From positions 7,976 to 71,975 of the forward strand of contig SUVR01000001.1 in NCBI GenBank assembly GCA_015061915.1: 64,000 nucleotides of DNA, written 5' to 3'. The notes below the pieces were generated by a model. It was not told where the DNA came from and searched no databases. It saw nothing but the letters and a program-made list of their open reading frames with translations. The stretch comes from Lentisphaerota bacterium (GTDB lineage: Bacteria; Verrucomicrobiota; Lentisphaeria; Victivallales; UBA1829). The translations under genes and the position numbers were made by a program. This document shows, one piece after another, positions 5,369 to 44,992 of this stretch. Position 1 is the first letter of the stretch. Each line of letters opens with the position of its first letter.

Positions 5369-5396
5369 AATATACTGTAAAAACAGAAAAAATCAA
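5369..5396 (-). promoter_or_regulatory. candidate internal sigma70-like promoter inside the lipid cluster
   Basis: On the minus strand: TTGATT (5396..5391), 16-nt spacer, TATATT (5374..5369). It lies in the only AT-rich gap (5312..5424) of an otherwise tightly packed operon. Confidence 0.35.
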
Positions 5397-5424
5397 GGCG
5401 TGATAAGACATAGTATGGATTTTT

Positions 5425-6912
5425 TCAGAGAAAACGGCGGATCAAACCGGTGTAGATGTCTTCTCCCAGCACCTGACGGAAAACGGAAAAAGAGGCAAGC
5501 ATCGTTCCCATGACACCCGGTACCAGCGCACTTTGTCCCGCCGCAAAAAAGTTGGAGACCGGCAGCTGACCGCAGATCCGTGCCTGACCGCAGATACATC
5601 TTGCGCCGTAGGCACTTCCGGTGGGCGGATCGTAGTCCAGACAAGTCCACGGGCTGCCGCTGGCAACCACATGAAGTTTTCCCTTCAGCGCAGGGTGGAC
5701 CGCTTCGATCTCTGCCGCTGCTTCCTGCACCATCGCCGCCTTGAATGTCTGATACGCTTCATCGTTCTGCCGTTCCCGGTGAGTGGCAGAAAATCCCTGC
5801 GGCATCCCTTCAAAACGCATCGTCCGGAATGCAGAGACCGTATGACGCAGGACGCCGGTCCGATCCGTTTCCCGGTTGAACAGGATCCCGGTGCTGTGAG
5901 CGCGGGTGCCGTCGGTCAGAATGTGATCGATATCGTTGCCGGAAAAATAGGAGACCAGCCCTTCCGGTACCGCTTCGTCGGCGGTAAAATAGGAACAGAA
6001 AAAGCTGCAGGATTCTTTCAGACGCCGGATCCGCCGTTCGTGGGACGGCGTTTTTGCTTCGTCCGGCAGAACATTCTGGATCGCAAGGGGATGCGTTGTG
6101 AAGAAAATATGTTCCGCATCCAGTGTTGTGCCGTCGGAAAGGCGGACTTCATGGCAAGCACCGTCGGAATCGGGAGCGGTGAATTTCAGCAGTTCCGTAC
6201 CGGTCCGGATGTCGATCCCGTACCTTTCCGCTTCCCGTTTGAAGGCGCGGATCATGGCATCACCGCCATCGTCCGGACGGGCGAGATCGGTGTGCAGGGC
6301 GTACCCCACCCGTGCGTGAAAACTCATTGGTGCTTCCGAAAGGGGCGTGCCGTGACACATGGCAAAAGATCCGGTACAGGCCGTTGCTGCCGGAGAAAGT
6401 CCCAGAGACTGACAGATCTCTCCCGCAGTCGTGAGATCATATCGGGAAAAATCGGGTGTCAATGGCGAAAGATCCCGCAGATCGTGCATGGGAGTCGTAT
6501 CCCAGATCTCCTGTTCGATCCGGAAAAATTCCCGGATCTTTTCCGCTTCATCCGGAAACGCATTGCAGCAGGCTTCCGCCGCTCCGGTATGACCGCAATC
6601 CGCCGGGAGCAGGATCTCTTTCCCGCTTTCGGCAAGTACGATCCGGTTGGAAATCGGGGTGCTGCCGACTGCATCGGACAGCCCCAGCACCTGCATCATC
6701 TGTTCCATTATTCCGTTCCGGCTGAATCCGCCTGAAAAATGATAGCCCGTATCGAAGGGGATCCCGTTCCGGTAAAAACGCCGCAGATAGCCGCCGATCT
6801 CCGGCTGACTTTCAATCAGCGTCACCGGTCTGCCGGACCGGGCAAGAAGCAGGGCAAGGGTCAAGCCGCCGGCTCCGGAGCCGCAGACAATATTGGTCCG
6901 TTCCCGCCGCAT
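5425..6912 (-). CDS. FAD/NAD(P)-dependent oxidoreductase, phytoene desaturase (CrtI)-like family
   Basis: N-terminal dinucleotide-binding fold IVCGSGAGGLTLALLLARSG. 495 aa, CrtI-like length. Confidence 0.7.
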   Translation of the reverse strand: MRRERTNIVCGSGAGGLTLALLLARSGRPVTLIESQPEIGGYLRRFYRNGIPFDTGYHFSGGFSRNGIMEQMMQVLGLSDAVGSTPISNRIVLAESGKEILLPADCGHTGAAEACCNAFPDEAEKIREFFRIEQEIWDTTPMHDLRDLSPLTPDFSRYDLTTAGEICQSLGLSPAATACTGSFAMCHGTPLSEAPMSFHARVGYALHTDLARPDDGGDAMIRAFKREAERYGIDIRTGTELLKFTAPDSDGACHEVRLSDGTTLDAEHIFFTTHPLAIQNVLPDEAKTPSHERRIRRLKESCSFFCSYFTADEAVPEGLVSYFSGNDIDHILTDGTRAHSTGILFNRETDRTGVLRHTVSAFRTMRFEGMPQGFSATHRERQNDEAYQTFKAAMVQEAAAEIEAVHPALKGKLHVVASGSPWTCLDYDPPTGSAYGARCICGQARICGQLPVSNFFAAGQSALVPGVMGTMLASFSVFRQVLGEDIYTGLIRRFL

Positions 6913-6916
6913 CGGA

Positions 6917-7654
6917 TCAGATCACCAGACCGCCGTTGACGGCGATCACCTGACCGTGGATATACGTGCTGTCCGGTCCGCAGAGAAAACTCACGGTTCC
7001 GGCGATTTCCGCCACTTTCCCGGTCCGGTGCAGGGGGATCAGGGGCAGGATCTGATCTTTCGGAAGATCTTTGGTCATATCGGTTTCGATCACGCCGGGA
7101 GCAACCACGTTCACAAGGACGCCTTTTCTGCCTACTTCACGGGCAAGTGCCTTTGCTGCACCGATCAACGCCGCTTTCGTGGCGGAATAGTTCACCTGAC
7201 CTGCCTGTCCGGTCTGACCGGAGGCGGAACTGATAATGACCACCCGCCCGCGACGCTTTGCCAGCATCCCGAAGACCAGCGGCTGGACCGTATTGTAAAA
7301 TCCGTTCAGATTGGTATCCAGCACGCTTTCCCATTCGTTGTCATCCATAAACACGAAAAGGTTGTCTTTGGCGATCCCGGAGTTGTAAACGACCACATCC
7401 GGCGGATTTTCTGTGGGGAACGTTTCAGCCAGAACGGTCCGTGCCGCCGCCCGGTCGCAGACATCCAGTTCCAGAATATTGCAACACCCGCCTGCAGCGG
7501 TGATCGCTTCGACCAGCGCAGCAGAATCTGCACCCTGTTTCCGGCAGGTCGCAGTGACTTCAAATCCATCTTTTGCAAGGCGTTCCGAAATTGCCTTTCC
7601 GATTCCCCGGCAACCGCCGATCACGAGAGCTTTTCTGCTGTTTTCTGCTGTCAT
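6917..7654 (-). CDS. 3-oxoacyl-ACP reductase (FabG-family SDR)
   Basis: 245 aa short-chain dehydrogenase. Contains GGCRGIG cofactor loop, NYSATKAAL (YxxxK) and FabG-like C-terminus IHGQVIAVNGGL. Confidence 0.85.
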   Translation of the reverse strand: MTAENSRKALVIGGCRGIGKAISERLAKDGFEVTATCRKQGADSAALVEAITAAGGCCNILELDVCDRAAARTVLAETFPTENPPDVVVYNSGIAKDNLFVFMDDNEWESVLDTNLNGFYNTVQPLVFGMLAKRRGRVVIISSASGQTGQAGQVNYSATKAALIGAAKALAREVGRKGVLVNVVAPGVIETDMTKDLPKDQILPLIPLHRTGKVAEIAGTVSFLCGPDSTYIHGQVIAVNGGLVI

Positions 7655-7676
7655 TTCAGTTTATCCTTCTATTTGA

Positions 7677-8933
7677 TCACTCTGTATATTTTTTGAAGAT
7701 GAGGGCGGCATTGTGTCCACCGAAACCGAGACTGTTGCTGAGGATGAATTCCGGATCTGCCTGACGCGCAATGTTCGGAGTGACATCCAGATCACATTCC
7801 GGGTCCGGTGTGGTGTAATTGATCGTGGGCGGTACAAGCCCGGTCTCAGCCGTTTTTACGCAGGCGACTGCCGCCAGTGCGCCCGCCGCTCCCAAGGCGT
7901 GTCCGATCATACTTTTGACTGCACTGACTGCGATTTTATCCGCATGAGCGCCGAAGACTGCCCGGATGGCTTTCGTTTCGCATTTGTCATTGGCTATTGT
8001 GCCGGTTCCGTGAGCGGAGATACAGGTAATATCCTCCGGTCTGCATCCTGCGTGAGCGATTGCCATTTGCATCGCCCGGATGTCGCCGGTACCTTCGGGA
8101 TCGGGGCTGGTGATGTGCCAGGCGTCGCAGGTCGCACCGTATCCGATCAGTTCTGCCAGAATGGTTGCACCCCGTTGTTTTGCGTGTTCCAGCTCTTCCA
8201 GTACCAGCAGGGCGGCACCTTCTGCGATCACGAAGCCGTCCCGGTTCAGATCAAAGGGTTTACAGGCTTTTTCCGGTTCTCCGTTCTGAAGGCTGAGTGC
8301 CGTCAATGCAGCGAAACCGCCGGTCAGGAGACGGGTCACACAAGTTTCTGAACCGCCGGCCAACATCAGATCGGCATCGCCCCGTTTGATCTGCCAGAAG
8401 GCTTCCCCGATGGCGTGTGAGGAGGAAGCACAGGCGGAGGATACGCTGAAATTCGGACCTTTCAGCCCGAAACGGATCGCCACGGATCCGGAAGCGGTAT
8501 TGGTGATATAGGACGGCACAAAAAAGGCGGAAAGCCCGCTTCCCCGTGCCAGTGCCGCTGCGTTTTTGTCATAGACTTCCACCCCGCCAGCACCGGATGA
8601 GATCAGAGCACCTGCACGGAATGGGTCCGGCAGAGTGATTTTTGCCGTTTCTGCATCCAGCAGTTTTGCTTGCGTCAGGGCTTCGTGTGCGGCAGCAATG
8701 GCAAAGCGTGTGAACCGGGCGGTGCGCCGTTCTTCTTTCACGGTCATGCCCGGCACAACCAGATCCCGCACTTCTCCGGCAATGGTCACCGGCAGTTTCG
8801 GTTCCGGTTCAAAAAGGGAGATCTGCCGGATCCCGCTTCTGCCGTGGGACAGAGTCTCCCACAGTTCCTGCACGGAATTTCCGCCGCAGCTTACTGCGCC
8901 CATACCGGTAATGACGATCCGCCGTTCTTTCAT
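7677..8933 (-). CDS. beta-ketoacyl-ACP synthase (FabF-like KS), catalytic triad intact
   Basis: SSACASSSHAIGEA, HGTGT and GHALGAAG motifs. I place the start at MKERRIVITGMG (ATG 8933), which forms an ATGA overlap with the stop of the upstream hydrolase gene. The ORF-track start 9008 is an extension. Confidence 0.85.
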   Translation of the reverse strand: MKERRIVITGMGAVSCGGNSVQELWETLSHGRSGIRQISLFEPEPKLPVTIAGEVRDLVVPGMTVKEERRTARFTRFAIAAAHEALTQAKLLDAETAKITLPDPFRAGALISSGAGGVEVYDKNAAALARGSGLSAFFVPSYITNTASGSVAIRFGLKGPNFSVSSACASSSHAIGEAFWQIKRGDADLMLAGGSETCVTRLLTGGFAALTALSLQNGEPEKACKPFDLNRDGFVIAEGAALLVLEELEHAKQRGATILAELIGYGATCDAWHITSPDPEGTGDIRAMQMAIAHAGCRPEDITCISAHGTGTIANDKCETKAIRAVFGAHADKIAVSAVKSMIGHALGAAGALAAVACVKTAETGLVPPTINYTTPDPECDLDVTPNIARQADPEFILSNSLGFGGHNAALIFKKYTE

Positions 8934-9889
8934 ATTTCTTCTTCTCTCTTTCCATCGTGGTTGAGGATCTTCTGTTCCTGCAGAAATTTCAGCAATTCTC
9001 CGGACCACGCCGCCGTTTCGGGATAAAGCTGTTTTTGTTTTTCATTCAGGAGTCCCATTCCGTGGGGACCGTGCTGAAAGATCAATGTCTTATGGGGGAT
9101 ATTATGTTTTTTCAATGCTGCATCCATCTGTTTTCCGTTTTCCGGATCAACGCATTGGTCTTCCAGTGTCAGCCACAGAAAAGTGGGTGGGAAACCGGGT
9201 GCGACCTGTTTTTCGAGGGAAAGAGCATCTATTTGTTCCGGGGTCGGATTGCTTCCCAGCAGATTGCTCCGGCTGGTCTTGTGGGCAGCTGTATCCATGG
9301 TAACGACCGGATAGCACATGATCACAAAGTCCGGTTTGGCGGAAAACCGTTTGACCGGATCTGCGGCATCTTTTTCACCTTCCGTATTGCCCAGTGCGGT
9401 CAGCGCGGCAAGGTGTCCTCCTGCCGATGAACCCATCGTGCCGACTTTCGCAGGATCAATGTTCAACGCCTTGGCATGAATACGGATCAGCCGCACCGTA
9501 TGTTGTGCCGCCTGCTGCATGGCGGGGTGTCGCCGGAAATGACCGAAGATCGAGCCCAGCGGATATTTGACTACGATCCCTGCAACGCCGTTCGCCGCAA
9601 GAAATTTTGCATATTCCGTCCCTTCCACATGGAAATCCAGCACCCCGTACGCTCCGCCGGGGAATATGATTGCCGCCGGTACGGGCTTGGTTGTTTTTGC
9701 CGGCAAAAAGATCTGAAGCGCACAGAACCAGTCGTCATCATACAAGTGATATGTTTTTTTACCGGGTTGATGCTTTGCTGCGTTTGCGATTTCGAATGTC
9801 GGTTCATCGGGCAGGACAAAGAGAAAACAGCCGGAAAGCAGCAGGAGTGCAGCTGCACAGAAAAAAAGACTGACCCATTTCCGACTCAT
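8930..9889 (-). CDS. alpha/beta-hydrolase (esterase/lipase-like) lipoprotein
   Basis: Signal peptide with lipobox LLLLSGC. GSSAGGH nucleophile elbow (GxSxG). Confidence 0.7.
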   Translation of the reverse strand: MSRKWVSLFFCAAALLLLSGCFLFVLPDEPTFEIANAAKHQPGKKTYHLYDDDWFCALQIFLPAKTTKPVPAAIIFPGGAYGVLDFHVEGTEYAKFLAANGVAGIVVKYPLGSIFGHFRRHPAMQQAAQHTVRLIRIHAKALNIDPAKVGTMGSSAGGHLAALTALGNTEGEKDAADPVKRFSAKPDFVIMCYPVVTMDTAAHKTSRSNLLGSNPTPEQIDALSLEKQVAPGFPPTFLWLTLEDQCVDPENGKQMDAALKKHNIPHKTLIFQHGPHGMGLLNEKQKQLYPETAAWSGELLKFLQEQKILNHDGKREEEI

Positions 9890-9915
9890 ATTTGTCCGTA
9901 TATTTTGTGTTCGTA

Positions 9916-10413
9916 TTACAGTTCTGTTACGCCGTCGTCGATCAGATACGGCATCTCCTCGTGGACCGTCGTATTGCCGGAGATCACTTTTGTATCCAGT
10001 TTGATATATTTGATCGTGCCGTCTGCCAGTACGGTCCCTTCCATATCCATAAGCTGGGATTCCACTACCACAAAACGGCTGGTCTCCCGCACAACCACAC
10101 CCTTTGCGATCAGGTCAGTTGCGTAGGGGACCGGCTTGCGGTAGTTTGTGGTCAGGTTGATGGTGACACCGAAATCTTTTTCTTCGCCGCCGTGATATGC
10201 CCAGAGTCCCCGCAGTCCCAGTTCATCCAGCATGGCAGTGATCAGCCCGCCGTGAACACGCCCCGGATAACTCTGGTGATTCGGGTGATACTGAAATTTC
10301 GTCATTACGCTGCCGTCTTCCATGTTGTAAAAAGCGGCACGCACACCGAATTCATTGTCAAGTCCGCAAATAATGCACATTTTACTGTTGCGCTGTCTGC
10401 TCAAAACTTTCAT
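9916..10413 (-). CDS. PaaI/4HBT-family hotdog thioesterase
   Basis: HGGLITAMLDE motif. Start set at MKVLSRQ (ATG 10413) with AAGGAG 8 nt upstream. This is the first gene of the minus-strand cluster. Confidence 0.75.
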   Translation of the reverse strand: MKVLSRQRNSKMCIICGLDNEFGVRAAFYNMEDGSVMTKFQYHPNHQSYPGRVHGGLITAMLDELGLRGLWAYHGGEEKDFGVTINLTTNYRKPVPYATDLIAKGVVVRETSRFVVVESQLMDMEGTVLADGTIKYIKLDTKVISGNTTVHEEMPYLIDDGVTEL

Positions 10414-10552
10414 TTGCTGCTCCTTGTTCCGGTAAAGATTATTTTTCTGTAATTTATAGCAAAAAAAAGAAAAGTCAAGGCTTGAACCGGGGCGGATCAC
10501 GGTTTAAAGTAATGCGTGAACACAAAAGGAAATTACCCGAAGGAGATTTTTT

Positions 10553-11776
10553 ATGGATAATACCCGCCTCAAAGCCTATGCCGAATTGATCGTGAAGAAG
10601 GGGCTTAACCCCGATCCCGGTCAGGAAGTGATCATTCTCGCCGCTCTGGATCAGCCGGAATTTGTGCGGCTGGTCGCTGAAGAATGTTACCGTGCCGGTG
10701 CCGCAAAAGTTACTGTGGATTGGCAGGATATGCCCCTGAACAAGTTGGCGCAGCTCTATCAGACTGAGGAAAAACTCGGATCCATCGAGGATTGGGAGAT
10801 CGAAAAACTCAAGTGGCGCGTGGAAAAACTGCCCGCTTTTCTCTGGCTGGATTCCGATGATCCGGACGGCATGGACGGCATTGATCAGGGCAAGCGTGCC
10901 CGCGCTCAGATGGCTCGTTTCCCGAAGATCAAACCTTACCGCGATGCCATGGAAAACCGCTTTCAGTGGTGTATCGCCGGAGTCCCCGGAAAGGAATGGG
11001 CGTGCAAAGTCTTCCCCGGTATTTCTGCGGAGGAGGCTGTGGAAAAACTGTGGGAAGCGATCCTGACCACCGCCCGCGCGGAAGGGGATCCCATCGCCAA
11101 CTGGGAGGAACACAACCGGGTCATCCACGAGCGCTGCAGCGCCCTGAACGACTATAAGTTTATCGCACTGGAGTATCAGAGCAGCAACGGCACGGATTTC
11201 CGTGTCGGACTGATGGAGCAGGGCATCTTTGCCGGTGGCGCGGAAAAAGATCTTTCCGGACGCATCTTTAACCCGAACATCCCCTCCGAAGAAATCTTCA
11301 CCAGCCCGAAACGGGGCGAGGCGGAAGGGGTGCTTGTCTCTACGAAACCCCTTTCCTGGCAGGGCAGCCTGATCGAAAACTTTTCCATCCGGTTCGAGAA
11401 GGGGAAAGCCGTGGAGGTCAAAGCGGAGAAAGGGCAGGAAGCGTTGGAACGGATGATCGCCATGGATGAGGGCGCGGCGTATCTGGGCGAATGTGCCCTC
11501 ATCGGCTGGGATTCCCCCATCAACCGGACCGGGATCCTCTTTTACAGCACCCTTTACGACGAAAACGCCAGCTGTCATGTGGCGCTGGGACGCGGCTTTG
11601 AAAACTGCGTTGCCGATTACGACAAGTACAGCCAGGAACAGCTCCGCGCCATGGGCGTCAACGACAGCATGATCCATGTGGACTTTATGATCGGCTGTCG
11701 GGATCTCAATATCACCGGGATCACAGCCGACGGACGGAAGATTCCCGTCTTCCGGTTCGGCGAATGGTGTTTCTGA
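10553..11776 (+). CDS. M29-family aminopeptidase (AmpS/PepS-like)
   Basis: 407 aa. The N-terminus MDNTRLKAYAELIVKKGLNPDPGQEVII is typical of aminopeptidase T/S family proteins. Confidence 0.75.
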   Translation: MDNTRLKAYAELIVKKGLNPDPGQEVIILAALDQPEFVRLVAEECYRAGAAKVTVDWQDMPLNKLAQLYQTEEKLGSIEDWEIEKLKWRVEKLPAFLWLDSDDPDGMDGIDQGKRARAQMARFPKIKPYRDAMENRFQWCIAGVPGKEWACKVFPGISAEEAVEKLWEAILTTARAEGDPIANWEEHNRVIHERCSALNDYKFIALEYQSSNGTDFRVGLMEQGIFAGGAEKDLSGRIFNPNIPSEEIFTSPKRGEAEGVLVSTKPLSWQGSLIENFSIRFEKGKAVEVKAEKGQEALERMIAMDEGAAYLGECALIGWDSPINRTGILFYSTLYDENASCHVALGRGFENCVADYDKYSQEQLRAMGVNDSMIHVDFMIGCRDLNITGITADGRKIPVFRFGEWCF

Positions 11777-12823
11777 TCAGGAAACAGTCCAGCGGCAGTA
11801 ATTCAGTTCTGCGCTCATTCCGTTGTGTTCATACCAGAGCGTAAAGAATGTGCCGTCCGGCATTTCGACGGTGGAAGGATATCCGAGATCTCTGTTCAGC
11901 CCACGGTCATGGATGATCCATTCTTCTCCCCAGGTTTTGCCGCCGTCTGCTGAAAACATTGCCCGGACACCGAATGGTTCTTTGCGCCAGCCGTATGTCA
12001 TGAGCAGATTCCCGTTTCGGGTACGCTGCAGGAATGAAGGAAAACCGTCGCAGATGTAATGCGGTTCACTCCATGTCGCACCGCCATCCATTGATTCCGT
12101 CTGCCATGTCCGTGTAATACATTCCTCTTTTCTGCAGGCGCGGATCTGGACAATGAGATCCCCGTTTTCCGTTTCCGCCGCATGAAGTTCGTGACAATTC
12201 GCATTTTCGTGTTCCGGCGGCGGTGGGATCTGCCCGATGATCTGCCAGGTTTTGCCGTTATCATCGGAAATACTGGCTGCCATTTCCGGTTTCATCATTG
12301 CCGAATCGACCGGATAATAGGAGTGTACTTTTCCGGGCATGAAAAGACGACCGCTTTTCAACAGGACCGGTCCGTGGGGATTGTTGACGGCGGTCCGGTA
12401 TTTTTCGCTCCAGGTCAACCCGTTATCCGTGGAGCGACGCATCCACAGACCATGTTCATCCCGCAATGTTTCGAGTGAAATACTGCGTGCAACCACATCC
12501 CATGGATGGGGTTTTCCCCATTTTTCCAGAATGGTGGCAACACTGGTGAAGTAGTTGACCAGAATTGAGCCGTCTGCTGCAATACAGATTCCCGCATCCC
12601 GGTCATCCAGTGGCCCCTGACTCAGAAATTCCGGAGCGGTCCAGGTTTCTCCACCATCCTTGGAACGATAGAAAAATACGCGTCCGTATGGACACATGTG
12701 TCCTTCCCGGTTTCCGGAGCAGACGGCGAGCAGTTCGCCGCTTTCCGTAATTGCCACGGTTGGCCAGCCGTGATAGGTTGGATTCAATGTGATTTTTCCG
12801 GTTTTGAGCTTTTTTACATTCAT
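11777..12823 (-). CDS. BNR/Asp-box repeat protein, sialidase-like (GH33-like), no signal peptide seen
   Basis: Five SxDxGxTW Asp-boxes: SKDGGETW, STDNGLTW, SDDNGKTW, SMDGGATW, SADGGKTW. Confidence 0.7.
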   Translation of the reverse strand: MNVKKLKTGKITLNPTYHGWPTVAITESGELLAVCSGNREGHMCPYGRVFFYRSKDGGETWTAPEFLSQGPLDDRDAGICIAADGSILVNYFTSVATILEKWGKPHPWDVVARSISLETLRDEHGLWMRRSTDNGLTWSEKYRTAVNNPHGPVLLKSGRLFMPGKVHSYYPVDSAMMKPEMAASISDDNGKTWQIIGQIPPPPEHENANCHELHAAETENGDLIVQIRACRKEECITRTWQTESMDGGATWSEPHYICDGFPSFLQRTRNGNLLMTYGWRKEPFGVRAMFSADGGKTWGEEWIIHDRGLNRDLGYPSTVEMPDGTFFTLWYEHNGMSAELNYCRWTVS

Positions 12824-39011: not shown

Positions 39012-40669
<1,658 letters not shown>

Positions 40670-40782: not shown

Positions 40783-41817
40783 TCAGCCTTCGTCGTCGTC
40801 AGCAGCGTCTGTGACCTTGCCGTAGGGACCTTTCAGGTCTGCCTGTGTATCGCTGGGGCCCAGTTGCAGACTGCCCACAGTTTCCACCGGGATCGCTTCC
40901 GCATGACCGTCAAAAAATCCGTGCAGGGTCATACCGCTGTGTCTGCCTTCCATAACATCCTTCTTGATCAGGTCAAGGCGTTCGCCATCCAGCTCATCTT
41001 CCGAGATTGTGCTGTCATAACCGATCCGTTCCATCTTTTCCAGACCGATGCCGCCGCCGCCGATACCGGGGATGTAACCGGTGGCAGTCCCCTTGGAAAA
41101 TTCACCGCGGGAAATGGCTTCATTGTACTTGACATATTGAACGGTATGGGTACCGTTATCCTGATTGGTCGCTTCCCCTTCTTCCACGATGAAGGCACGC
41201 TTCCCGGGACTCTTGATCTGACTCATATGCAGAAAGCTGACCGGCAGATTGTTCACATTCCGGGTTATAATGTCACCATTCATATTGACTGCAAAGTTCC
41301 CGAAGGAGTAAACGGCGTCCTGCGTACCCTGACTGCCGCCGATCACGAACCCGATGTCCCCGTGGCTGCCCTGATTACCCGGTTTGATCTTTTGCCAGAC
41401 AGGTTCCAGAATGACGTTCTTTTTGCCTTTGACATAGCCGTTGGCGTTCATCGTTGCACCGGCGTTCCAGTACGGCAGCACATTGGTACACATAAACATC
41501 CACCAGTGCGGATCCCGTTTGTTCCGCGCTTCGGGGATCAGACTGGTCATAATACGGGCGCTCCAGTCTTCTGGTTCGGACACTCCGTCACTGTGCGTGT
41601 AACGGGCAGAGATGGGAACCTGACCATTGTTTTGTGCTGCATATTTTGCTCCCAGCTGGGAGACGTCACGCACGCGGGAAAGGCATTGGACCTGCTTGGC
41701 TCTTTCCTTCACGGAGTTCAATGCGGGCAGCAGAAGCATAAAAAGAATAATGACGATTGCCATGACCACCATCATTTCAATCAGGGTAAAATAGTGTGAT
41801 CTGAATCTGTTTTTCAT
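40783..41817 (-). CDS. H-X9-DG prepilin-type N-terminal cleavage/methylation domain protein (intact paralog P1)
   Basis: Start at ATG 41817: MKNRFRSHYFTLIEMMVVMAIVIILFMLLLPALNSVKERAK (class III signal/pilin-like N-terminus). The C-terminus has H-SGMTLHGFF-DG (H-X9-DG) and an acidic tail DAADDDEG. Confidence 0.8.
   Translation of the reverse strand: MKNRFRSHYFTLIEMMVVMAIVIILFMLLLPALNSVKERAKQVQCLSRVRDVSQLGAKYAAQNNGQVPISARYTHSDGVSEPEDWSARIMTSLIPEARNKRDPHWWMFMCTNVLPYWNAGATMNANGYVKGKKNVILEPVWQKIKPGNQGSHGDIGFVIGGSQGTQDAVYSFGNFAVNMNGDIITRNVNNLPVSFLHMSQIKSPGKRAFIVEEGEATNQDNGTHTVQYVKYNEAISRGEFSKGTATGYIPGIGGGGIGLEKMERIGYDSTISEDELDGERLDLIKKDVMEGRHSGMTLHGFFDGHAEAIPVETVGSLQLGPSDTQADLKGPYGKVTDAADDDEG
41699..41733. 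repeat. left copy of 35-bp perfect inverted repeat (inside P1 5' coding region)
   Basis: The reverse complement of 41699..41733 is CTGCTGCCCGCATTGAACTCCGTGAAGGAAAGAGC, identical to 43814..43848. Flanking codons differ at many synonymous positions. Confidence 0.9.
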
Positions 41818-41854
41818 AAAGCAGCTCTCCATAATGTTGCATTTTATCAACACT

Positions 41855-41883
41855 AAAATAGCATATATGCAACGACTTGTCAA
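41855..41883 (-). promoter_or_regulatory. sigma70-like promoter of P1
   Basis: On the minus strand: TTGACA (41883..41878, overlapping the recombinase stop codon), 17-nt spacer containing the palindrome GCATATATGC, then TATTTT (41860..41855). GGAGAG RBS lies at 41830..41825. Confidence 0.6.
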
Positions 41884-43691
41884 ATTATTTTTTTATGTTT
41901 TTCGGAGATTTCATCTGTTTTTATTTTTTTTATACCTGATCCCGGCGTGCCGTTTCTCAGAATGATCCGGTAACAGGGGGTATCCAGCAGAATTTTCTCT
42001 TTCATTTTTCTGCACACTTCTCCGGTGTCATAAAAAAAGACGGTCACCTTGTAATCTGTCTGTTCCTGAACGATCTGCACCTGTCCGGGAGGAAGTCTTT
42101 TGGAACGGTATTTTCCGGTGATCCGTGGTAAGCAGAACACATTTCCGTCGAAAAGCGTGATCCGGACCTGTTCCGCAAAAACGGCGATTTCCCGGATTGC
42201 AGCCCGTGCCAGCAGAAAGTAGCGTTCCGGCGTCAGCAGAGAACCGGTATAACCTATTTTTTCCAGTTCTTTCCTGTGTTGAGCAAAGTGGTTTTCTGCG
42301 GCATCCTCCGCCCGGCTTCTCAATTCCAGCAAACGGTTTTCTTTCTGCCGGATCTGTCCGGAAAGATCAGCTGCTTTCCATTTGAATGTTTCTCTATCCA
42401 GCAAACCGCTGAAATGCAGGTCGATCATTCCTGCAAGATTTTTCCGGTTGACGGCGATCTCCTCTGTCAGCTCCCGGATTGCCTGTTGGAGTTTATTGCC
42501 GGGATCCGGATGATTGTTCCGGTGATAAAGATAAAGCGGAAACAACGCCTGAATGGTCAGCAGCTGATCTGTTTCCTTCCGGAGAGTGGAAATACGGATC
42601 CGGCTTTGAGTGCATTGTTTATCCTTCAGAAGGGAAGTATGTTTGCAGAAATAAACAACACCGTTTTCTCCGGCTGCCGAGAGGCGTTTCCCGCAATTTC
42701 CGCAGACCAGAAGGCCGCTCAACGGCAGAAAACGGGTCGGTTTGGAAGTGTTGAGTTTCTGTTTTGTATTTTTTCCTTTCCGGTCGGAAACCCGTTGCCG
42801 GATTTCGAGAAAACGATGCAGGGGAAGGATCGGTTCGCAACCCATATTGGCGATCGCAGTATATTCGCCATTTTTCAGAAAATATCCGCAGTAAACGGGA
42901 TTTTTCAGAATGTTGTAGATATTGGTCTCGTAAAAACACCTTGCCTGTTTCCCGTTCCGGGTGGTTCGCAGATGAAAATAATGGGTGTTCAGGGTATTCA
43001 GGATCTTTCCGTAACTCCACCCTTTTTCAACACCGTCAAAGACCATCCGGAGTGCTTCCCGGCAATCCGGCGGGAATACGATCTTTTTATCGACCCAGCC
43101 GACTCCGAAGGCATTGGAATAGTAAATCCCCTTTTCCTTCTGTTCGGCACGGACCCGCTTGCTCTGGGCTGCTTTTTCATCAATTTTGCTCATTTCATAG
43201 GTCGCCAGAAGTTTCTGAACGGCAATATCGATCACATTATCAAGATTGTCCACTTTTCCGCTGGTCACATCCACGATGGCGATCCCTTTTTCCGCCAGTT
43301 CGTTGGTAATGAAACCATCCAGAAAACTGTTGTTCGGTGAACGGTAAAGACGGGTTCGCTCGTGAACGATCACATAATCCACACTGTTGTTGCGGAGACA
43401 GGTGAAAAGTTCTCCCAGCTGCCGGCGGTAATCTTTCGTGAATGCCCGGGATTTCCGCCATACCTGCCAGGCTTTGTCTGTGTTGCAGAAAGCACGCGCC
43501 TCCGGCGTGTTCGGATAAAGTTCTCCCGGTGTATTGAAATCAGAAAATTCCTTCAGAATTTCAACTCCGTGGGCTTCTGCCCAGTTCCTGCACTGGATGA
43601 TCTGGTCGGCTATGCTCAGGGATACATCATCCCCACCGCTGCTCTGCCGGTAATAGGCTACTGCTTTTTTACGCTTCTTGTTTTCCTGCAT
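41880..43691 (-). CDS. large serine recombinase (resolvase catalytic domain + recombinase domain + zinc ribbon + coiled-coil)
   Basis: AVAYYRQSSGGDDVSLSIADQ (catalytic Ser context), ILKNPVYCGYF recombinase-domain motif, zinc ribbon LLVCGNCGKRL...YFCKH, and a long helical C-terminal region. 603 aa. Confidence 0.88.
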   Translation of the reverse strand: MQENKKRKKAVAYYRQSSGGDDVSLSIADQIIQCRNWAEAHGVEILKEFSDFNTPGELYPNTPEARAFCNTDKAWQVWRKSRAFTKDYRRQLGELFTCLRNNSVDYVIVHERTRLYRSPNNSFLDGFITNELAEKGIAIVDVTSGKVDNLDNVIDIAVQKLLATYEMSKIDEKAAQSKRVRAEQKEKGIYYSNAFGVGWVDKKIVFPPDCREALRMVFDGVEKGWSYGKILNTLNTHYFHLRTTRNGKQARCFYETNIYNILKNPVYCGYFLKNGEYTAIANMGCEPILPLHRFLEIRQRVSDRKGKNTKQKLNTSKPTRFLPLSGLLVCGNCGKRLSAAGENGVVYFCKHTSLLKDKQCTQSRIRISTLRKETDQLLTIQALFPLYLYHRNNHPDPGNKLQQAIRELTEEIAVNRKNLAGMIDLHFSGLLDRETFKWKAADLSGQIRQKENRLLELRSRAEDAAENHFAQHRKELEKIGYTGSLLTPERYFLLARAAIREIAVFAEQVRITLFDGNVFCLPRITGKYRSKRLPPGQVQIVQEQTDYKVTVFFYDTGEVCRKMKEKILLDTPCYRIILRNGTPGSGIKKIKTDEISEKHKKII

Positions 43692-43750
43692 TGTTTTACC
43701 CCAATGTCCTTAATTTAATACTTGTCCGTACTTTTTCAAACTGTCTTGAC

Positions 43751-43795
43751 TGAAAACCGTACTATTTTGCAATAGTGGTCGTTATGGCGATCATT
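43751..43795 (+). repeat. attR-like hybrid recombination site (dyad arm + GT + 5' end of the P2 body)
   Basis: 27-nt arm TGAAAACCGTACTATTTTGCAATAGTG (43751..43777), GT (43778..43779), then CGTTATGGCGATC, which encodes (V)VMAI. Confidence 0.55.
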
Positions 43796-44770
43796 GTGAT
43801 TCTCTTTATGCTCCTGCTGCCCGCATTGAACTCCGTGAAGGAAAGAGCAAAACGTGTAGAGTGTCTTACCCGTCTGAAAGGATCAACGGAAATGGCGTTT
43901 CTTGCATCAAGTCTTTACGATAACCGTGTTATATTTTCAGGAGTCAATTATCATCCTGTATATAAATTGGTTGACGAATTCAATTTCCCGGAGCTTGTTA
44001 TGGCGGTTGTGAAGCCGGATAAATTAGGAAAAAAAGATGAGGAATGGCGTGGTTTTGTATGTACAAATGTGTTGCCGGGGTGGACCAGAGCATATTCTGC
44101 AACTCCTTCCGGAATACCATATAACGCTGACCATCCCTCTGATTATGTCCGGGAGGGCTGGGCAAGTGTAAATCCTGCCGGTCCCGTCGGGGCACCATGG
44201 TATATGGTAGGAGAACAAGCCGGACCTCTGTATCCTTTGGGAAATTTCGGAACGAATACGAATGGACTCCTTTTGGAGTATAAAACGGAAGTGAGCGACA
44301 ATGGGCGATACGGAAAAGTGGGGCATATGTCCCGCATCCCAAGTCCTGATAGACGTGCCTATATCGTTGAAGTTTCTGAAACCGCTCCTCAGGTCACAAG
44401 TCATGTTATGTACCCGCTTTACAATGATCCGATTGATAGAGGAGATGGACAAGACAATCGTCCCGGTACTGGTAATGGAGGCTTCATTCCCGGTATGGGG
44501 GGCGGAGGAATCGGAAAAGAAAAAATGGAAAAGATCGGTTATGCCGCAAATATCAGCGAGTTGACTCCGGAGCAATTTGAAAGGGTCGACAAGGATATAA
44601 AAGAGGGCAGGCATGACGGTATGACCCTGCATGGCTTCTTTGATGGTCATGTAGAGGCAATCCCGGTGGAAACAGTGGGCAGCCTTCAGTTGGGACCGGG
44701 GCAGACCGCATCAGAAGATTTGAAAGGTCCTTACGGATATTTCAGCCGTCCCGCCGATGATGATGAATAA
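43775..44770 (+). CDS. leaderless H-X9-DG prepilin-type gene body (paralog P2), inverted relative to its promoter and leader; predicted silent in this orientation
   Basis: The reading frame opens only at ..IVVVMAIIVILFMLLLPALNSVKERAKRVECL. It lacks the MK..FTLIEM leader, has no SD and no ATG. It is otherwise colinear with P1, including GGGGIGKEKMEKIGY, H-DGMTLHGFF-DG and the PADDDE tail. Confidence 0.7.
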   Translation: MVVMAIIVILFMLLLPALNSVKERAKRVECLTRLKGSTEMAFLASSLYDNRVIFSGVNYHPVYKLVDEFNFPELVMAVVKPDKLGKKDEEWRGFVCTNVLPGWTRAYSATPSGIPYNADHPSDYVREGWASVNPAGPVGAPWYMVGEQAGPLYPLGNFGTNTNGLLLEYKTEVSDNGRYGKVGHMSRIPSPDRRAYIVEVSETAPQVTSHVMYPLYNDPIDRGDGQDNRPGTGNGGFIPGMGGGGIGKEKMEKIGYAANISELTPEQFERVDKDIKEGRHDGMTLHGFFDGHVEAIPVETVGSLQLGPGQTASEDLKGPYGYFSRPADDDE

Positions 44771-44883
44771 ATGGTGAAAAAGGCTGGATTTCCGCGATTT
44801 TTTTGCTGTGTTTTGTAAAAGTCCGGGGAGAAAACAAGGGAGGAGATTTTTTTCTCATGAAAACCGTTTTATTTTGCAGTGGT
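43780..44883. mobile_element. predicted invertible segment carrying the P2 body
   Basis: Bounded by the two hybrid att-like sites. Their GT crossover dinucleotides lie on opposite strands (43778..43779 plus, 44885..44884 minus). Confidence 0.5.
43814..43848. repeat. right copy of 35-bp perfect inverted repeat (inside P2 5' coding region)
   Basis: CTGCTGCCCGCATTGAACTCCGTGAAGGAAAGAGC, the exact reverse complement of 41699..41733. Confidence 0.9.
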
Positions 44884-44905
44884 CACCATCATTTCAATCA
44901 GGGTA
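44857..44905 (-). repeat. attL-like hybrid recombination site (3' end of leader + GT + dyad arm)
   Basis: The minus strand reads TTGAAATGATG-GT-GACCACTGCAAAATAAAACGGTTTTCA. The arm 44883..44857 is the inverted partner of 43751..43777 (22 of 27 positions identical when compared on the plus strand). Confidence 0.55.
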
Positions 44906-44930
44906 AAATGCAGTTTTTTCAATGTTTTCA
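44868..44930 (-). other. orphan prepilin leader cassette (20 codons then stop)
   Basis: Own translation gives MKTLKKLHFTLIEMMVTTAK*. It is nucleotide-identical to the P1 leader over ATTTTACCCTGATTGAAATGATGGTG, then diverges into the dyad arm and terminates. Confidence 0.75.
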
Positions 44931-44963
44931 TAATTGGTTCCCGGGGTTGCAGTTTCTGTTGTA

Positions 44964-44992
44964 AAAATAGCATAAAAACGGGATGTTGTCAA
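44964..44992 (-). promoter_or_regulatory. sigma70-like promoter driving the orphan leader
   Basis: On the minus strand: TTGACA (44992..44987), 17-nt spacer, TATTTT (44969..44964). It has the same architecture and the same ATGCTATTTT -10 context as the P1 promoter. Confidence 0.6.

Follow-up and report, generated by a model that had tools for sequence, protein, structure and literature searches.

Gene content and organization of the locus

Within the 64,000-nt stretch of DNA analysed here (the window), the locus comprises an intact pilin-like gene, P1, a large serine recombinase (LSR) gene, and a second pilin-like gene, P2, which is split into two parts on opposite strands. P1 (40783..41817, minus strand) is an open reading frame whose translation is a 344-aa prepilin-like H-X9-DG paralog consisting of a leader (L1) and a body (B1). 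Its promoter-like site (41855..41883, minus strand; TTGACA-17-TATTTT with TG) overlaps the stop codon of the recombinase gene and thus moves together with the recombinase segment. The first part of P2 is an orphan leader, L2 (44869..44931, minus strand), of 20 codons, MKTLKKLHFTLIEMMVTTAK, plus a stop codon ending at 44869. Upstream of its ATG at 44931 lies a promoter-like site of the same type as that of P1 (TTGACA-17-TATTTT at 44992..44964, minus strand; 10/12, extended -10 TG), so that promoter and prepilin leader are present as described in the first-pass annotation, which was made from the letters alone. The second part, B2 (43778..44770, plus strand), is the intact P2 body, which is in frame to its stop codon and silent in the window arrangement. 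It is leaderless, full length and on the opposite strand as annotated, but the annotation was mistaken in giving it no ATG: the Met codon of its VVMAII motif (43784-43786) is ATG, and public gene callers begin there a 328-aa product (P0001/P0030) that is 100% identical to B2.

The breaks in P2 are bordered by two 27-nt arms. Arm A (43751..43777, plus strand), a P-type half-site read towards the core, is joined to B2 in the window, and arm A' (44858..44884, plus strand; formerly placed one base off) is a second P-type half-site whose in-frame TAA terminates the orphan leader peptide. The arms are 22/27 identical, as the annotation had stated, direct on the plus strand, and followed by GT (43778-79) and AC (44885-86), respectively, which puts the two GTs on opposite strands. 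The central GT of the hybrid site A.B2 accordingly lies at 43778..43779 on the plus strand, with the crossover within TGGT (43776-43779), and the central dinucleotide of the hybrid site L2.A' (44885..44886) is GT on the minus strand. The arm core pattern has exactly two occurrences in the 64 kb (0.01 expected by chance), and the leader-end pattern has two in the window (P1 and the orphan leader; 0.00 expected). P1 holds a second gene-internal attB-like site, with its core GT at 41769-41768 on the minus strand. In three species, species 2 and 3 included, A and A' are 22/27 identical and both extend 27 nt from the core, while the L and B half-sites make up a distinct partial dyad (11–13/27 matching); the inner 12 nt are alike in all half-sites. 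This layout appears to be of the LSR type, with two half-site families, a crossover within TGGT and hybrid products, the attP-like dyad itself being unseen.

Inverting the predicted invertible segment 1 (43780..44884; 1,105 bp) in silico rebuilt P2, with ATGATGGT running on in frame into CGTTATGGCG, and the encoded protein, at 345 aa, was collinear over its whole length with the 344-aa P1. The same inversion joined the arms into a dyad (27+GT+27) located 59 bp upstream of the ATG of the recombinase gene. Both outcomes, an in-frame protein of about 345 aa and a dyad, had been foreseen for an exchange at the GTs. The junctions predicted for the window are CTGATTGAAATGATGGTCGTTATGGCGATCATTG for expressed P2 and TTTTGCAATAGTGGTGACCACTGCAAAA for the free dyad. 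The islet from 41880 to 44884 has a G+C content of 47.3%, compared with 53.2% for the window and 55–56% for flanking genes, which confirms an impression of AT-richness that had been gained by eye.

The recombinase

The LSR gene (41880..43691, minus strand) encodes 603 aa with Resolvase (PF00239, E = 2.1e-13), Recombinase (PF07508, E = 2.3e-12) and Zn_ribbon_recom (PF13408, E = 1.1e-6) domains, in agreement with the domains assigned in the first pass. The catalytic serine region Y13-x-R15-Q16-S17 and the zinc-ribbon residues C330, C333, C349 and C360 are invariant across 14 family members. A PDB search with the single sequence gave no match, and the class was derived from the family profile, which matches SPbeta integrase (E = 4e-7), and from a fold search. 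Best Foldseek matches of the AlphaFold2 (AF2) model were the SPbeta, phiC31, Bxb1 and LI integrases (down to E = 6e-18), with full-length alignments to the SPbeta, phiC31 and Bxb1 enzymes (E 6e-18 to 2.5e-14). The best NCBIfam match, XisF, was sub-threshold (64.5 bits versus a cutoff of 375). In the model, a long alphaE helix (153-186) is followed by the recombinase domain and zinc ribbon, and two long antiparallel helices (400-427 and 433-466; pLDDT about 80–89) are predicted to form the coiled-coil motif, a directionality-control element, inserted in the zinc ribbon; a coiled coil had already been suspected there. As judged from domains and predicted fold, the LSR is of the serine-integrase type and not a small invertase. 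A promoter-like site (43712..43739, minus strand; TTGAAA-16-TAAATT) lies between arm A and the ATG, and a TTGAAA/TTGACA...TAAATT pair also precedes other family members down to 33% identity. A search of the module for a directionality-factor gene returned only alternate-frame overlaps of two genes, which fragment differently between species.

LSR relatives at 28–62% identity have an arm and a leaderless H-X9-DG/DUF1559 body beside their start codon, followed by kilobases of cargo, and physical linkage between arm and recombinase start codon holds throughout the family, down to 28% identity. One relative sits on an IMG/VR viral contig. PHROGs annotation of the cargo genes beside distant relatives gave no matches, so that their mobile nature is deduced from gene content, from the truncation of the target gene and from this one contig. 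The elements that these distant relatives serve as integrases are mobile or proviral and have inserted into H-X9-DG/DUF1559 genes at the same codons as in P1 and P2, and by this comparison the window LSR looks like a domesticated phage-type integrase without its phage, in a gut Lentisphaerae bacterium.

The pilin-like proteins

For the prepilin-type N-terminal cleavage/methylation motif (G|FTLIE) the signals are mixed: rebuilt P2 scores 17.4 bits with TIGR02532 (cutoff 16.3), and the scores with PF07963 are 15.8 and 13.2 bits (cutoff 21.2). The residue preceding FTLIE in P1, P2 and their variants is H, Y, F, N or I, never G. Neither protein matched DUF1559 (PF07596) or TIGR04294 even at E ≤ 10; a P1/P2 profile aligned with a true DUF1559 protein (L014) at 97.5% probability, confined to the N-terminal 58 columns. 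The C-terminal H-x9-DG element, GRH[SD]GMTLHGFFDGH in P1 and P2, is invariant in 14 relatives. In the AF2 model of rebuilt P2 (mean pLDDT 41.7), the N-terminal helix alone is credible.

The silent bodies remain under purifying selection. Silent versus expressed orthologues have dN/dS values of 0.06–0.14 (0.06 for B2 versus the expressed orthologue in L009), and all distinct leaderless bodies (13+, across species) are intact open reading frames free of frameshifts and stop codons. Arms and bodies are conserved in relatives; the decay that would have spoken against a functional switch was not seen. As a separate observation, mosaic N-termini and a swapped central body cassette indicate that homologous exchange does happen at the locus.

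Natural arrangements in related genomes

A survey of assembled contigs, at consensus level, showed two arrangements. In state 1, P1 is intact and P2 is split (window, L001 and 19 similar contigs, L004-L008, L010, L016-L019, L024 and 18 similar contigs, L025, L027-L029). In state 3, P2 is intact, P1 is split and the recombinase segment is flipped (L009, L020 and L021 complete; L003, L022 and L023 partial). The homologue of segment 1 is inverted between L003/L020 and L004/L024. The homologue of a predicted invertible segment 2 (41770..43777; 2,008 bp), which comprises the P1 leader and promoter, the recombinase gene and arm A, has in L009, L020 and L021 the opposite orientation to that in the window, L004 and L024. 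A flip of segment 2 against the P1 site would split P1, and the P1 orthologue is split at exactly the P1 core position in these same three contigs. In state-3 contigs the recombinase gene still adjoins, at its 3' end, leader 1 and the region upstream of that leader, and arm A is joined to B1; the corresponding window junctions would read TTTTGCAATAGTGGTGGTCATGGCAATCG (A.B1) and CACACTATTTTACCCTGATTGAAATGATGGTGACCACTGC (L1.A').

In sister lineages, the amidohydrolase-adjacent leader is either joined to A' or fused in frame to the body at ..ATG GT CGT.. (fusions in L003, L009 and L020-L023). The ON arrangement that the first-pass annotation proposed to look for in related genomes therefore exists, and these natural variants agree with its reading of an inverted attL/attR-like hybrid pair, with P2 currently OFF, in which inversion at the GTs places the body behind the leader. 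Two protein pairs have identical bodies in ON and OFF forms: P0086 (345 aa, 17 contigs) versus P0088 (327 aa, 6 contigs), and P0105 (372 aa) versus P0103 (355 aa, 25+ contigs). In species 2, an identical A' with its flank is found on leader 2 (L004-L008, L024) or on leader 1 (L003, L020-L022).

The sister-lineage contigs L020 and L024 have flanks that are 100.000% identical over 4,677 + 3,655 + 2,838 nt. Two in-silico inversions at the GT cores converted L024 into L020 with 0 mismatches over 10,883 nt. Only crossover shifts of -2 to 0 nt gave 0 mismatches, which confines the exchange to TGGT. The test was repeated with L021, L022 and L023 against L024, L028 and L029, and the conversion was seen in four independent assemblies (three assemblers and datasets). 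Both end states thus occur in a clonal background, at a locus with conserved arms, spacing and silent bodies and with an integrase-type LSR. Such state 1/state 3 pairs imply at least one recent event other than attP × attB in a clonal lineage.

All P2-ON contigs with downstream sequence (L003, L009, L020-L022) also have the recombinase segment inverted and P1 split. Inversion of P2 at the GTs therefore stands, but the simple 1.1-kb ON/OFF switch that had been predicted does not: P1 had been missed as the second partner site, and the locus is a three-site, two-gene toggle. The free 56-bp A-GT-A' dyad expected after inversion (state 2) was present in none of the contigs examined, and neither state 4 (leader 1 with body 2; predicted window junction CACACTATTTTACCCTGATTGAAATGATGGTCGTTATGGCG) nor the deletion product (leader 2 with body 1) occurred among more than 100 loci and cluster members; the junction search covered contigs other than those of P0089-P0091 (leader-2 forms, 11 contigs). 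Scans of JGI metagenomes with protein patterns and an arm A' DNA pattern gave no match, the collection evidently lacking these samples, and L010 was the one match in a scan of species-representative genomes.

At consensus level the window's own species shows state 1 only (P1 full length in about 70 public contigs, P2 always leaderless), so that the expected ON orientation was met in sister lineages and not here. Species 3 likewise shows a single state. The P1 site of the window reads GT followed by GGTC, whereas lineages with observed switching have CGTC or CGTT after the GT; together with the single state, this suggests that switching of the window's copy may be rare or absent. The one hint of heterogeneity inside a single population comes from L026, in which a 3,372-nt unit with both ends exactly at the cores occurs as two identical copies, connected through an L1.A' junction. 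A short Logan contig from 6 samples (L002), which breaks just upstream of the recombinase, was considered as a graph branch at an invertible junction and rejected, as it contains the OFF junction and each of its ends falls in a stretch of about 30 nt that the N-termini of P1 and P2 have in common. A crossover further to the left, suggested by the L003 fused gene (GAAGTAATG) when compared with the L004 leader (GAAATGATG), was also discarded, because L010, L020 and L024 show a strain variant of leader 2 that is found in both states.

A probable three-site inversion toggle and its alternatives

We regard the locus as very probably a DNA-inversion toggle with three sites, driven by a domesticated large serine recombinase. 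Two B-type sites would lie in the 5' coding regions of the pilin-like paralogs (leader, GT, body; codons ..E-M-M-V before and V.. after the crossover), and one P-type site, A-GT-A' from the two 27-nt arms, would belong to the recombinase gene. The P-type site was always found joined to one of the two gene sites, in P1 or P2, and hence exactly one paralog is split. From state 1, in which P2 is divided into arm A plus body on one strand and promoter, leader and A' on the other, inversion of 43780..44884 (attL × attR type) would rebuild P2 and the A-GT-A' dyad; recombination of the dyad with the P1-internal site (attP × attB type) would then invert 41770..43777 and split P1. We infer that the adjacent LSR catalyses the switching, that the path passes through the both-intact intermediate, that directionality is somehow overcome with no directionality factor encoded in the module, and that the locus can switch in both directions, providing phase or antigenic variation of a surface or pseudopilus protein.

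To our knowledge, canonical serine integrases do not recombine attL with attR when a directionality factor is absent. For phiC31 integrase, reversal without this factor is possible in vivo at low frequency (PMC11784100). A bolder version of the toggle, which we put forward tentatively and hold to be somewhat less probable than its opposite, is that a natural serine integrase inverts DNA in both directions, either with no directionality factor of its own or by borrowing one from related resident elements, and shuttles an attP-like site between two attB-like sites inside paralogous genes. Mutually exclusive expression would then be hard-wired, with one paralog always ON and never both OFF, and the 3.1–3.4-kb module may leave as a circle, as L026 hints.

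The most serious competitor, though in our estimate an unlikely one, is a promiscuous three-site shufflon or mini mobile element, in which the LSR recombines any pair of sites whatever their P or B type. States 1 and 3 would then interconvert via state 4 (leader 1-body 2 fusion, arm A on body 1), formally a 3.1–3.4-kb element, consisting of the recombinase and its own pilin-like gene, canonically integrated in a host pilin-like gene. The route through L1.B2/A.B1 gives in silico the same end product as the state-2 path, down to identical sequence, and this counts against the latter; moreover, the relatives are mobile-element integrases at the same target. Direct-repeat pairs would additionally excise a circle or give tandem copies, and the L026 tandem is as expected from a circle or from inter-sister exchange (L1.B1 × L2.A'), but could equally be a mis-join in a mixed sample. 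Against such promiscuity, no L1.B2 or L2.B1 junction or chimeric protein occurred among the >100 contigs and cluster members, and known serine integrases are described as not synapsing attB with attL or attR (PMC3783163).

One-way events, in which each lineage, starting from a both-intact ancestor with a free attP-like site, independently reached state 1 or state 3 through one irreversible attP × attB inversion and is now losing the split gene, would need nothing beyond the canonical, factor-free reaction and would fit the single states of the window's species and species 3. We consider them improbable: the backgrounds on which states 1 and 3 are found are identical over >11 kb, which would date the both-intact ancestor to very recent times, although none of the contigs examined shows it; furthermore, the split bodies are under strong purifying selection and the arms are conserved with exact spacing. 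Least credible of all, to a degree that we give it almost no weight, is an origin by homologous recombination between the P1 and P2 N-terminal inverted repeats, by a recombinase acting in trans or by assembly error, with the adjacent LSR as a bystander remnant. P1 and P2 do have inverted repeats in common on either side of the recombinase (106 nt at 80% and 121 nt at 76%), and the mosaic N-termini and swapped body cassettes would suit such exchange, but the junction partners (arm and leader, arm and body) have only TGGT in common and cannot be made by homologous recombination; an assembly error would have had to recur in four independent assemblies from three assemblers, and a bystander would hardly have the arm linked to its start codon throughout the family. 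Neither homologous recombination nor assembly artefact was accepted as the cause.

Comparison with known systems

Much of the surface variation in gut bacteria arises through programmed inversion. The enzymes known to carry it out belong to three kinds, small serine invertases, tyrosine recombinases and Piv-type enzymes, whose sites are matching inverted repeats, and it is these repeats that repeat-based searches for invertible DNA rely on. Since the two sites of the present locus have only one half-site and a 4-bp core in common, inverted-repeat searches would probably miss this class. No natural precedent for an LSR-driven inversion toggle was found in the literature searched, nor a described example controlling the H-X9-DG family, as the first-pass annotation had supposed. 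For this pilin-like family the locus offers a first hint of phase or antigenic variation, which fits the insertion of related elements, one of them on a viral-classed contig, into the same codons of such genes.

The LSR has the domain architecture and predicted fold of phage and mobile-element serine integrases (phiC31, Bxb1, SPbeta SprA, Listeria A118/LI), and the locus, like these systems, has two site types, a short central crossover and hybrids of one P-type and one B-type half. It differs in having no element to integrate or excise and no directionality factor encoded nearby. The chromosome itself carries the P-type site and both B-type sites, which lie inverted at distances of 1.1 and 2.0 kb, and recombination therefore yields inversion. 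LSRs reconstitute genes by excision in SpoIVCA/skin-sigK, SprA/SPbeta-spsM and XisF/fdxN, where an interrupted gene is likewise rebuilt precisely and in frame. There the gene halves are direct and the element is lost as a circle in a terminal, one-way event in a differentiating cell; here the halves are on opposite strands, nothing is lost, and the rebuilding of one gene is coupled to the splitting of its paralog. The pneumococcal prophage group PPH100 resembles the distant LSR relatives in that its serine integrase uses a type IV pilin-like gene as attB, the site lying within comGC (PMC8637289). PPH100 is a plain insertion of a full prophage, unlike the toggle proposed here.

Small serine invertases (Hin, Gin, Cin, PinQ), which alter surface or tail-fibre proteins by programmed inversion (PMC3798978, PMC12529663), have serine-recombinase chemistry in common with the LSR. 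They are about 190 aa long, with a C-terminal HTH, two near-identical sites and a Fis-bound enhancer, whereas the LSR has 603 aa and is of integrase type, and its sites differ, with only one half-site type in common. Moraxella Piv (tfpQ/tfpI) is a DEDD-type enzyme and Rci of plasmid R64 a tyrosine recombinase. In such pilin and shufflon inversions, the crossover lies inside a pilin-type coding region and joins a constant N-terminus to alternative bodies, giving mutually exclusive variants (PMC11852207). The locus resembles them in that a constant, promoter-proximal N-terminus is joined by inversion within a pilin-type coding region, but they have a single shared expression site, while here a non-coding decoy, the arms, would move between two promoter-leader modules.

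If the toggle operates as proposed, the integrase logic of synthetic memory devices (attP/attB to attL/attR) is present in nature as a gene switch, in a design that the synthetic devices found do not have, one attP competing for two attBs with an either/or output. It would also be a natural case of attL × attR, or other non-canonical, pairing without a nearby factor, in which directionality control is directly testable. Synthetic rewritable memory and 'latch' modules combine phiC31 or Bxb1 integrase and a directionality factor with inverted attP/attB sites (PMC6511857, PMC6030632). As at the locus, recombination of the inverted sites flips a segment and leaves attL/attR, and reset needs attL × attR. 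These switches are man-made two-site constructs whose reset relies on an added directionality factor, whereas the locus is natural and has one attP-like site common to two gene-internal attB-like sites.

Architecture of the split gene and its recombination sites

A strong promoter-like site on the minus strand (44992..44964; TTGACA-17-TATTTT with an extended -10 TG) precedes an orphan leader ORF that starts at ATG 44931 and, read directly from the sequence, has 20 codons (MKTLKKLHFTLIEMMVTTAK, then stop). The complete body of the split gene P2, a paralog of the intact pilin-like H-X9-DG gene P1 (40783..41817, minus strand), begins on the plus strand at the leader's end point and is in frame from 43778 to its stop at 44770. 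One 27-nt arm lies at each break (43751..43777 and 44858..44884); the arms are identical at 22 of 27 positions, with a GT next to each on opposite strands, and arm A' provides the conserved in-frame TAA that terminates the leader peptide. The arm core occurs twice in 64 kb (0.01 expected), and the two occurrences of the leader-end motif are the orphan leader and P1. When 43780..44884 was inverted in silico, the rebuilt P2 protein (345 aa) was collinear with the 344-aa P1, and the two arms formed a 27+GT+27 dyad at 59 bp ahead of the recombinase ATG. The first-pass annotation, made from the sequence alone, had described the promoter and leader on the minus strand, the rebuilt gene with its dyad, and an islet judged AT-rich by eye, all of which we recovered (islet GC 47% vs 53% for the window). 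It was right that the body lacks a leader but wrong that it has no ATG, since one lies at 43784, where public gene callers start a 328-aa product; the arms are present as it described, although its coordinate for the second was off by one base.

P1 and P2 also form long imperfect inverted repeats flanking the recombinase gene (121 nt at 76%, 40856..40976 and 44577..44697; 106 nt at 80%, 41675..41780 and 43767..43872). In short-read assemblies such repeats produce k-mer breaks, of which contig L002 is an example, and they could mislead inverton finders based on inverted repeats.

Both proteins carry the H-x9-DG motif and show homology to DUF1559 proteins in their N-terminal region, where 58 columns align at 97.5% probability; the DUF1559 model itself did not match P1 or P2, and their predicted structures were unreliable. 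Prepilin peptidases normally require glycine before FTLIE. This residue is H, Y, F, N or I and never glycine in the window leaders (44887..44931 and 41770..41817) and in the public products P0002, P0086 and P0105, and P1/P2-type proteins are perhaps not processed as classical prepilins.

The recombinase gene (41880..43691, minus strand) encodes a 603-aa protein in which Resolvase, Recombinase and zinc-ribbon domains were detected. A single-sequence search with this divergent protein matched no solved structure, and a profile of 14 family members matched the SPbeta integrase (E=4e-7). In its AlphaFold model (pLDDT 73), a long alphaE helix accompanies the catalytic, recombinase and zinc-ribbon domains, and residues 400-466 form a pair of long antiparallel helices at the position of the coiled-coil motif of serine integrases. 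The closest structures were full-length integrases of SPbeta, phiC31, Bxb1 and Listeria, with E values reaching 6e-18. The enzyme is a large serine recombinase, as originally called, and belongs to the integrase type.

We name half-sites L1 and L2 (ends of the promoter-leader modules), B1 and B2 (body starts) and A and A' (arms). A and A' constitute one family, with an outer motif (GAAAACCGT..TTT[TA]GC) and a 27-nt distance to the core, the central GT, that are kept in three species (recombinases 77-78% identical). The L and B half-sites belong to another family, which has its own partial dyad (11-13/27), and all four types are alike over the inner 12 nt (6-9/12) and unlike farther out. By this pattern A.A' is attP-like and L.B attB-like, and the present sites are therefore attL/attR-like hybrids, as the first-pass annotation had proposed.

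Alternative states in relatives

A search with the rebuilt P2 retrieved the leaderless body itself and a full-length ortholog at 78% identity, and found no full-length P2 in the window's own species. At least seven distinct relatives have the break point, M[AT]IIVILFML, as their precise start, and several 90%-identity clusters hold leaderless and full-length members together. The 345-aa P0086, which has leader 1 and occurs on 17 contigs, is identical in its body to the leaderless P0088 of 6 contigs (327 aa); likewise P0105, with leader 2 and 372 aa, and the leaderless P0103, with 355 aa and on 25+ contigs, have identical bodies. Relatives thus show that the split recurs and is no accident.

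In state 1, L1.B1 is intact with the recombinase on the same strand, A.B2 is silent on the other strand, and L2.A' is the orphan leader, adjoining the amidohydrolase gene. This arrangement was seen in the window, L001 (and 19 similar contigs), L004-L008, L010, L016-L019, L024 (and 18 similar contigs), L025 and L027-L029. In state 3, seen in L009, L020, L021 and the partial contigs L003, L022 and L023, L2.B2 is intact, L1.A' is the orphan leader, the recombinase is flipped and A.B1 is silent. The predicted P2-ON junction (leader 2, GT, body 2) therefore occurs in nature. P1 is a second partner site, which the first-pass annotation missed: in 5/5 ON contigs with known downstream sequence (L003, L009, L020-L022) a second inversion via the arms also splits P1. 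Only state 1 was found in the window's species, with P1 full length in all ~70 contigs and P2 always leaderless; its P1 site reads GT/GGTC vs GT/CGTC in switching lineages.

Crossover in a clonal background

Contigs L020 (state 3) and L024 (state 1), from different samples of one study, have flanks that are 100.000% identical over 4,677 + 3,655 + 2,838 nt, and the half-sites of this lineage are distinct up to the core (L1 ..ATGATG, L2 ..GTAATG, A ..GTAGTG, B CGTC.., A' GATC..). Once L024 was inverted at 7997..9346 and then at 5977..7994, it matched L020 without a single mismatch in 10,883 nt. Because only crossover shifts of -2 to 0 nt were tolerated and every other shift created mismatches, the exchange lies within TGGT, consistent with a 27+2+27 site that is cut at its centre with a 2-bp stagger. 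Homologous recombination is ruled out because arm and gene sequences have only TGGT in common, and assembly error because the test, repeated with state-3 contigs L021, L022 and L023 from three assemblers and datasets, returned single 100% blocks of 7,788, 2,296 and 1,510 nt.

States 1 and 3 are two inversions apart. The path could lead via state 2 (both genes intact plus a free dyad), by an attL x attR-type step followed by attP x attB, or via state 4, where leader 1 is joined to body 2 and arm A to body 1, by attB x attR-type steps. Both paths yield the identical product in silico, and neither intermediate was found among the contigs examined. We favour the path via state 2 because it is compatible with known serine-integrase pairing rules; a free attP opposite two attBs is expected to persist only briefly, and this would account for the lack of state 2 in consensus assemblies. 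Whichever path was taken, the clonal lineage has recently undergone at least one reaction that is not attP x attB. The module encodes no directionality-factor candidate. phiC31 integrase performs low-frequency attL x attR recombination without a factor in vivo (PMC11784100); supply of a factor by related resident elements is an alternative possibility.

One attP-like and two attB-like sites would give stable states with exactly one paralog split, i.e. either/or output. Judged by geometry, in state 1 and not in state 3, the orphan leader-2 promoter is directed through antisense B2 into the recombinase gene (43692..44992, minus strand, no terminator-like site predicted), and the state could possibly feed back on recombinase expression.

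Contig L026 (ENA ERZ28594178 scaffold_1981, 5371..12115) holds two 3,372-nt units in tandem, 100% identical, each of recombinase plus arm A.body 2, with limits exactly at the recombination cores and a leader-1.A' junction as joint. Possible explanations are a genuine duplication, the collapse of a circle with the chromosome, or a mis-join where the sample contained both states.

Maintenance and exchange of silent bodies

The dN/dS was 0.06 between the window's silent P2 and its expressed ortholog in L009, 0.14 between two silent copies of different species, and 0.06 between silent and expressed copies within species 2, the sister lineage, compared with 0.10 for two expressed P1 orthologs. Every leaderless variant still forms an intact ORF; the silent copies are maintained.

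L017 belongs to a different strain of the window's species, and its left and right sides match the window at 98.6% and 94.5% identity; the central ~650 nt of its silent body differ (8070..8718 vs window 43850..44500), and the product, P0005, is 52% identical to P2. The cassette's variable core was therefore swapped between strains, with N- and C-terminal parts retained. Between two species-2 strains, the silent body at the B2 position (L016, 2474..3463) is 90% identical to the B1 body (L004, 3821..4812), and body N-termini are mosaic between paralogs, e.g. P0042 vs P0040. Such likeness points to gene conversion between inverted paralogs.

Origin and comparison with known systems

The recombinase family comprises 14 clusters (100% to 33% identity), with named members from Lentisphaerae MAGs, and the cargo-free arrangement between two paralogs was restricted to the closest clade (77-100%). 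Relatives of 28-62% identity (L011, L013, L014/L015, L031) likewise have a leaderless H-X9-DG/DUF1559 body and an arm beside the recombinase start codon, followed by kilobases of unrelated genes with no leader nearby; one of these relatives lies on an IMG/VR viral contig. The family is therefore one of integrases with attB at the conserved ..E-[LM]-[LM]-V/V.. codons of these genes, and the window's system looks like a domesticated derivative.

These relatives' recombinases lie at one end of larger elements, inserted in H-X9-DG/DUF1559 genes at the same codons as the window's site. Their cargo includes small ORFs, an 881-aa helicase-like protein and a Dam-type methyltransferase, with no PHROGs match. 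Comparison of the upstream DNA of four relatives (33-62% identity; L011, L013, L014/L015) showed a conserved promoter-like pair, TTGAAA/TTGACA..TAAATT, ahead of the recombinase gene in all of them.

The right flank is syntenic in all species (amidohydrolase, methyltransferase, DUF374, HhH-GPD, MFS). The left flank is tgt/DJ-1/YgjP/DnaA in the window's species vs RNase PH/carboxyltransferase in species 2 and a third species (species 3), and the P1 3' end coincides with a genome rearrangement breakpoint (window tgt 39569..40669 vs the RNase PH side of L004/L024).

Full-text literature searches turned up shufflons, systems with small invertases and synthetic switches in which an integrase inverts DNA, and no natural inversion switch with an integrase-type enzyme on attP/attB-type sites. 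They also turned up a systematic survey of gene-altering inversions, in which pilins are among the enriched families and which makes no mention of large serine recombinases, DUF1559 or Lentisphaerae (PMC9881135). The relatives' insertion in pilin-like genes has a published parallel in a pneumococcal prophage that has a serine integrase and inserts in comGC (PMC8637289). We class the locus as programmed inversion, which is known, with an unusual enzyme class and site logic.
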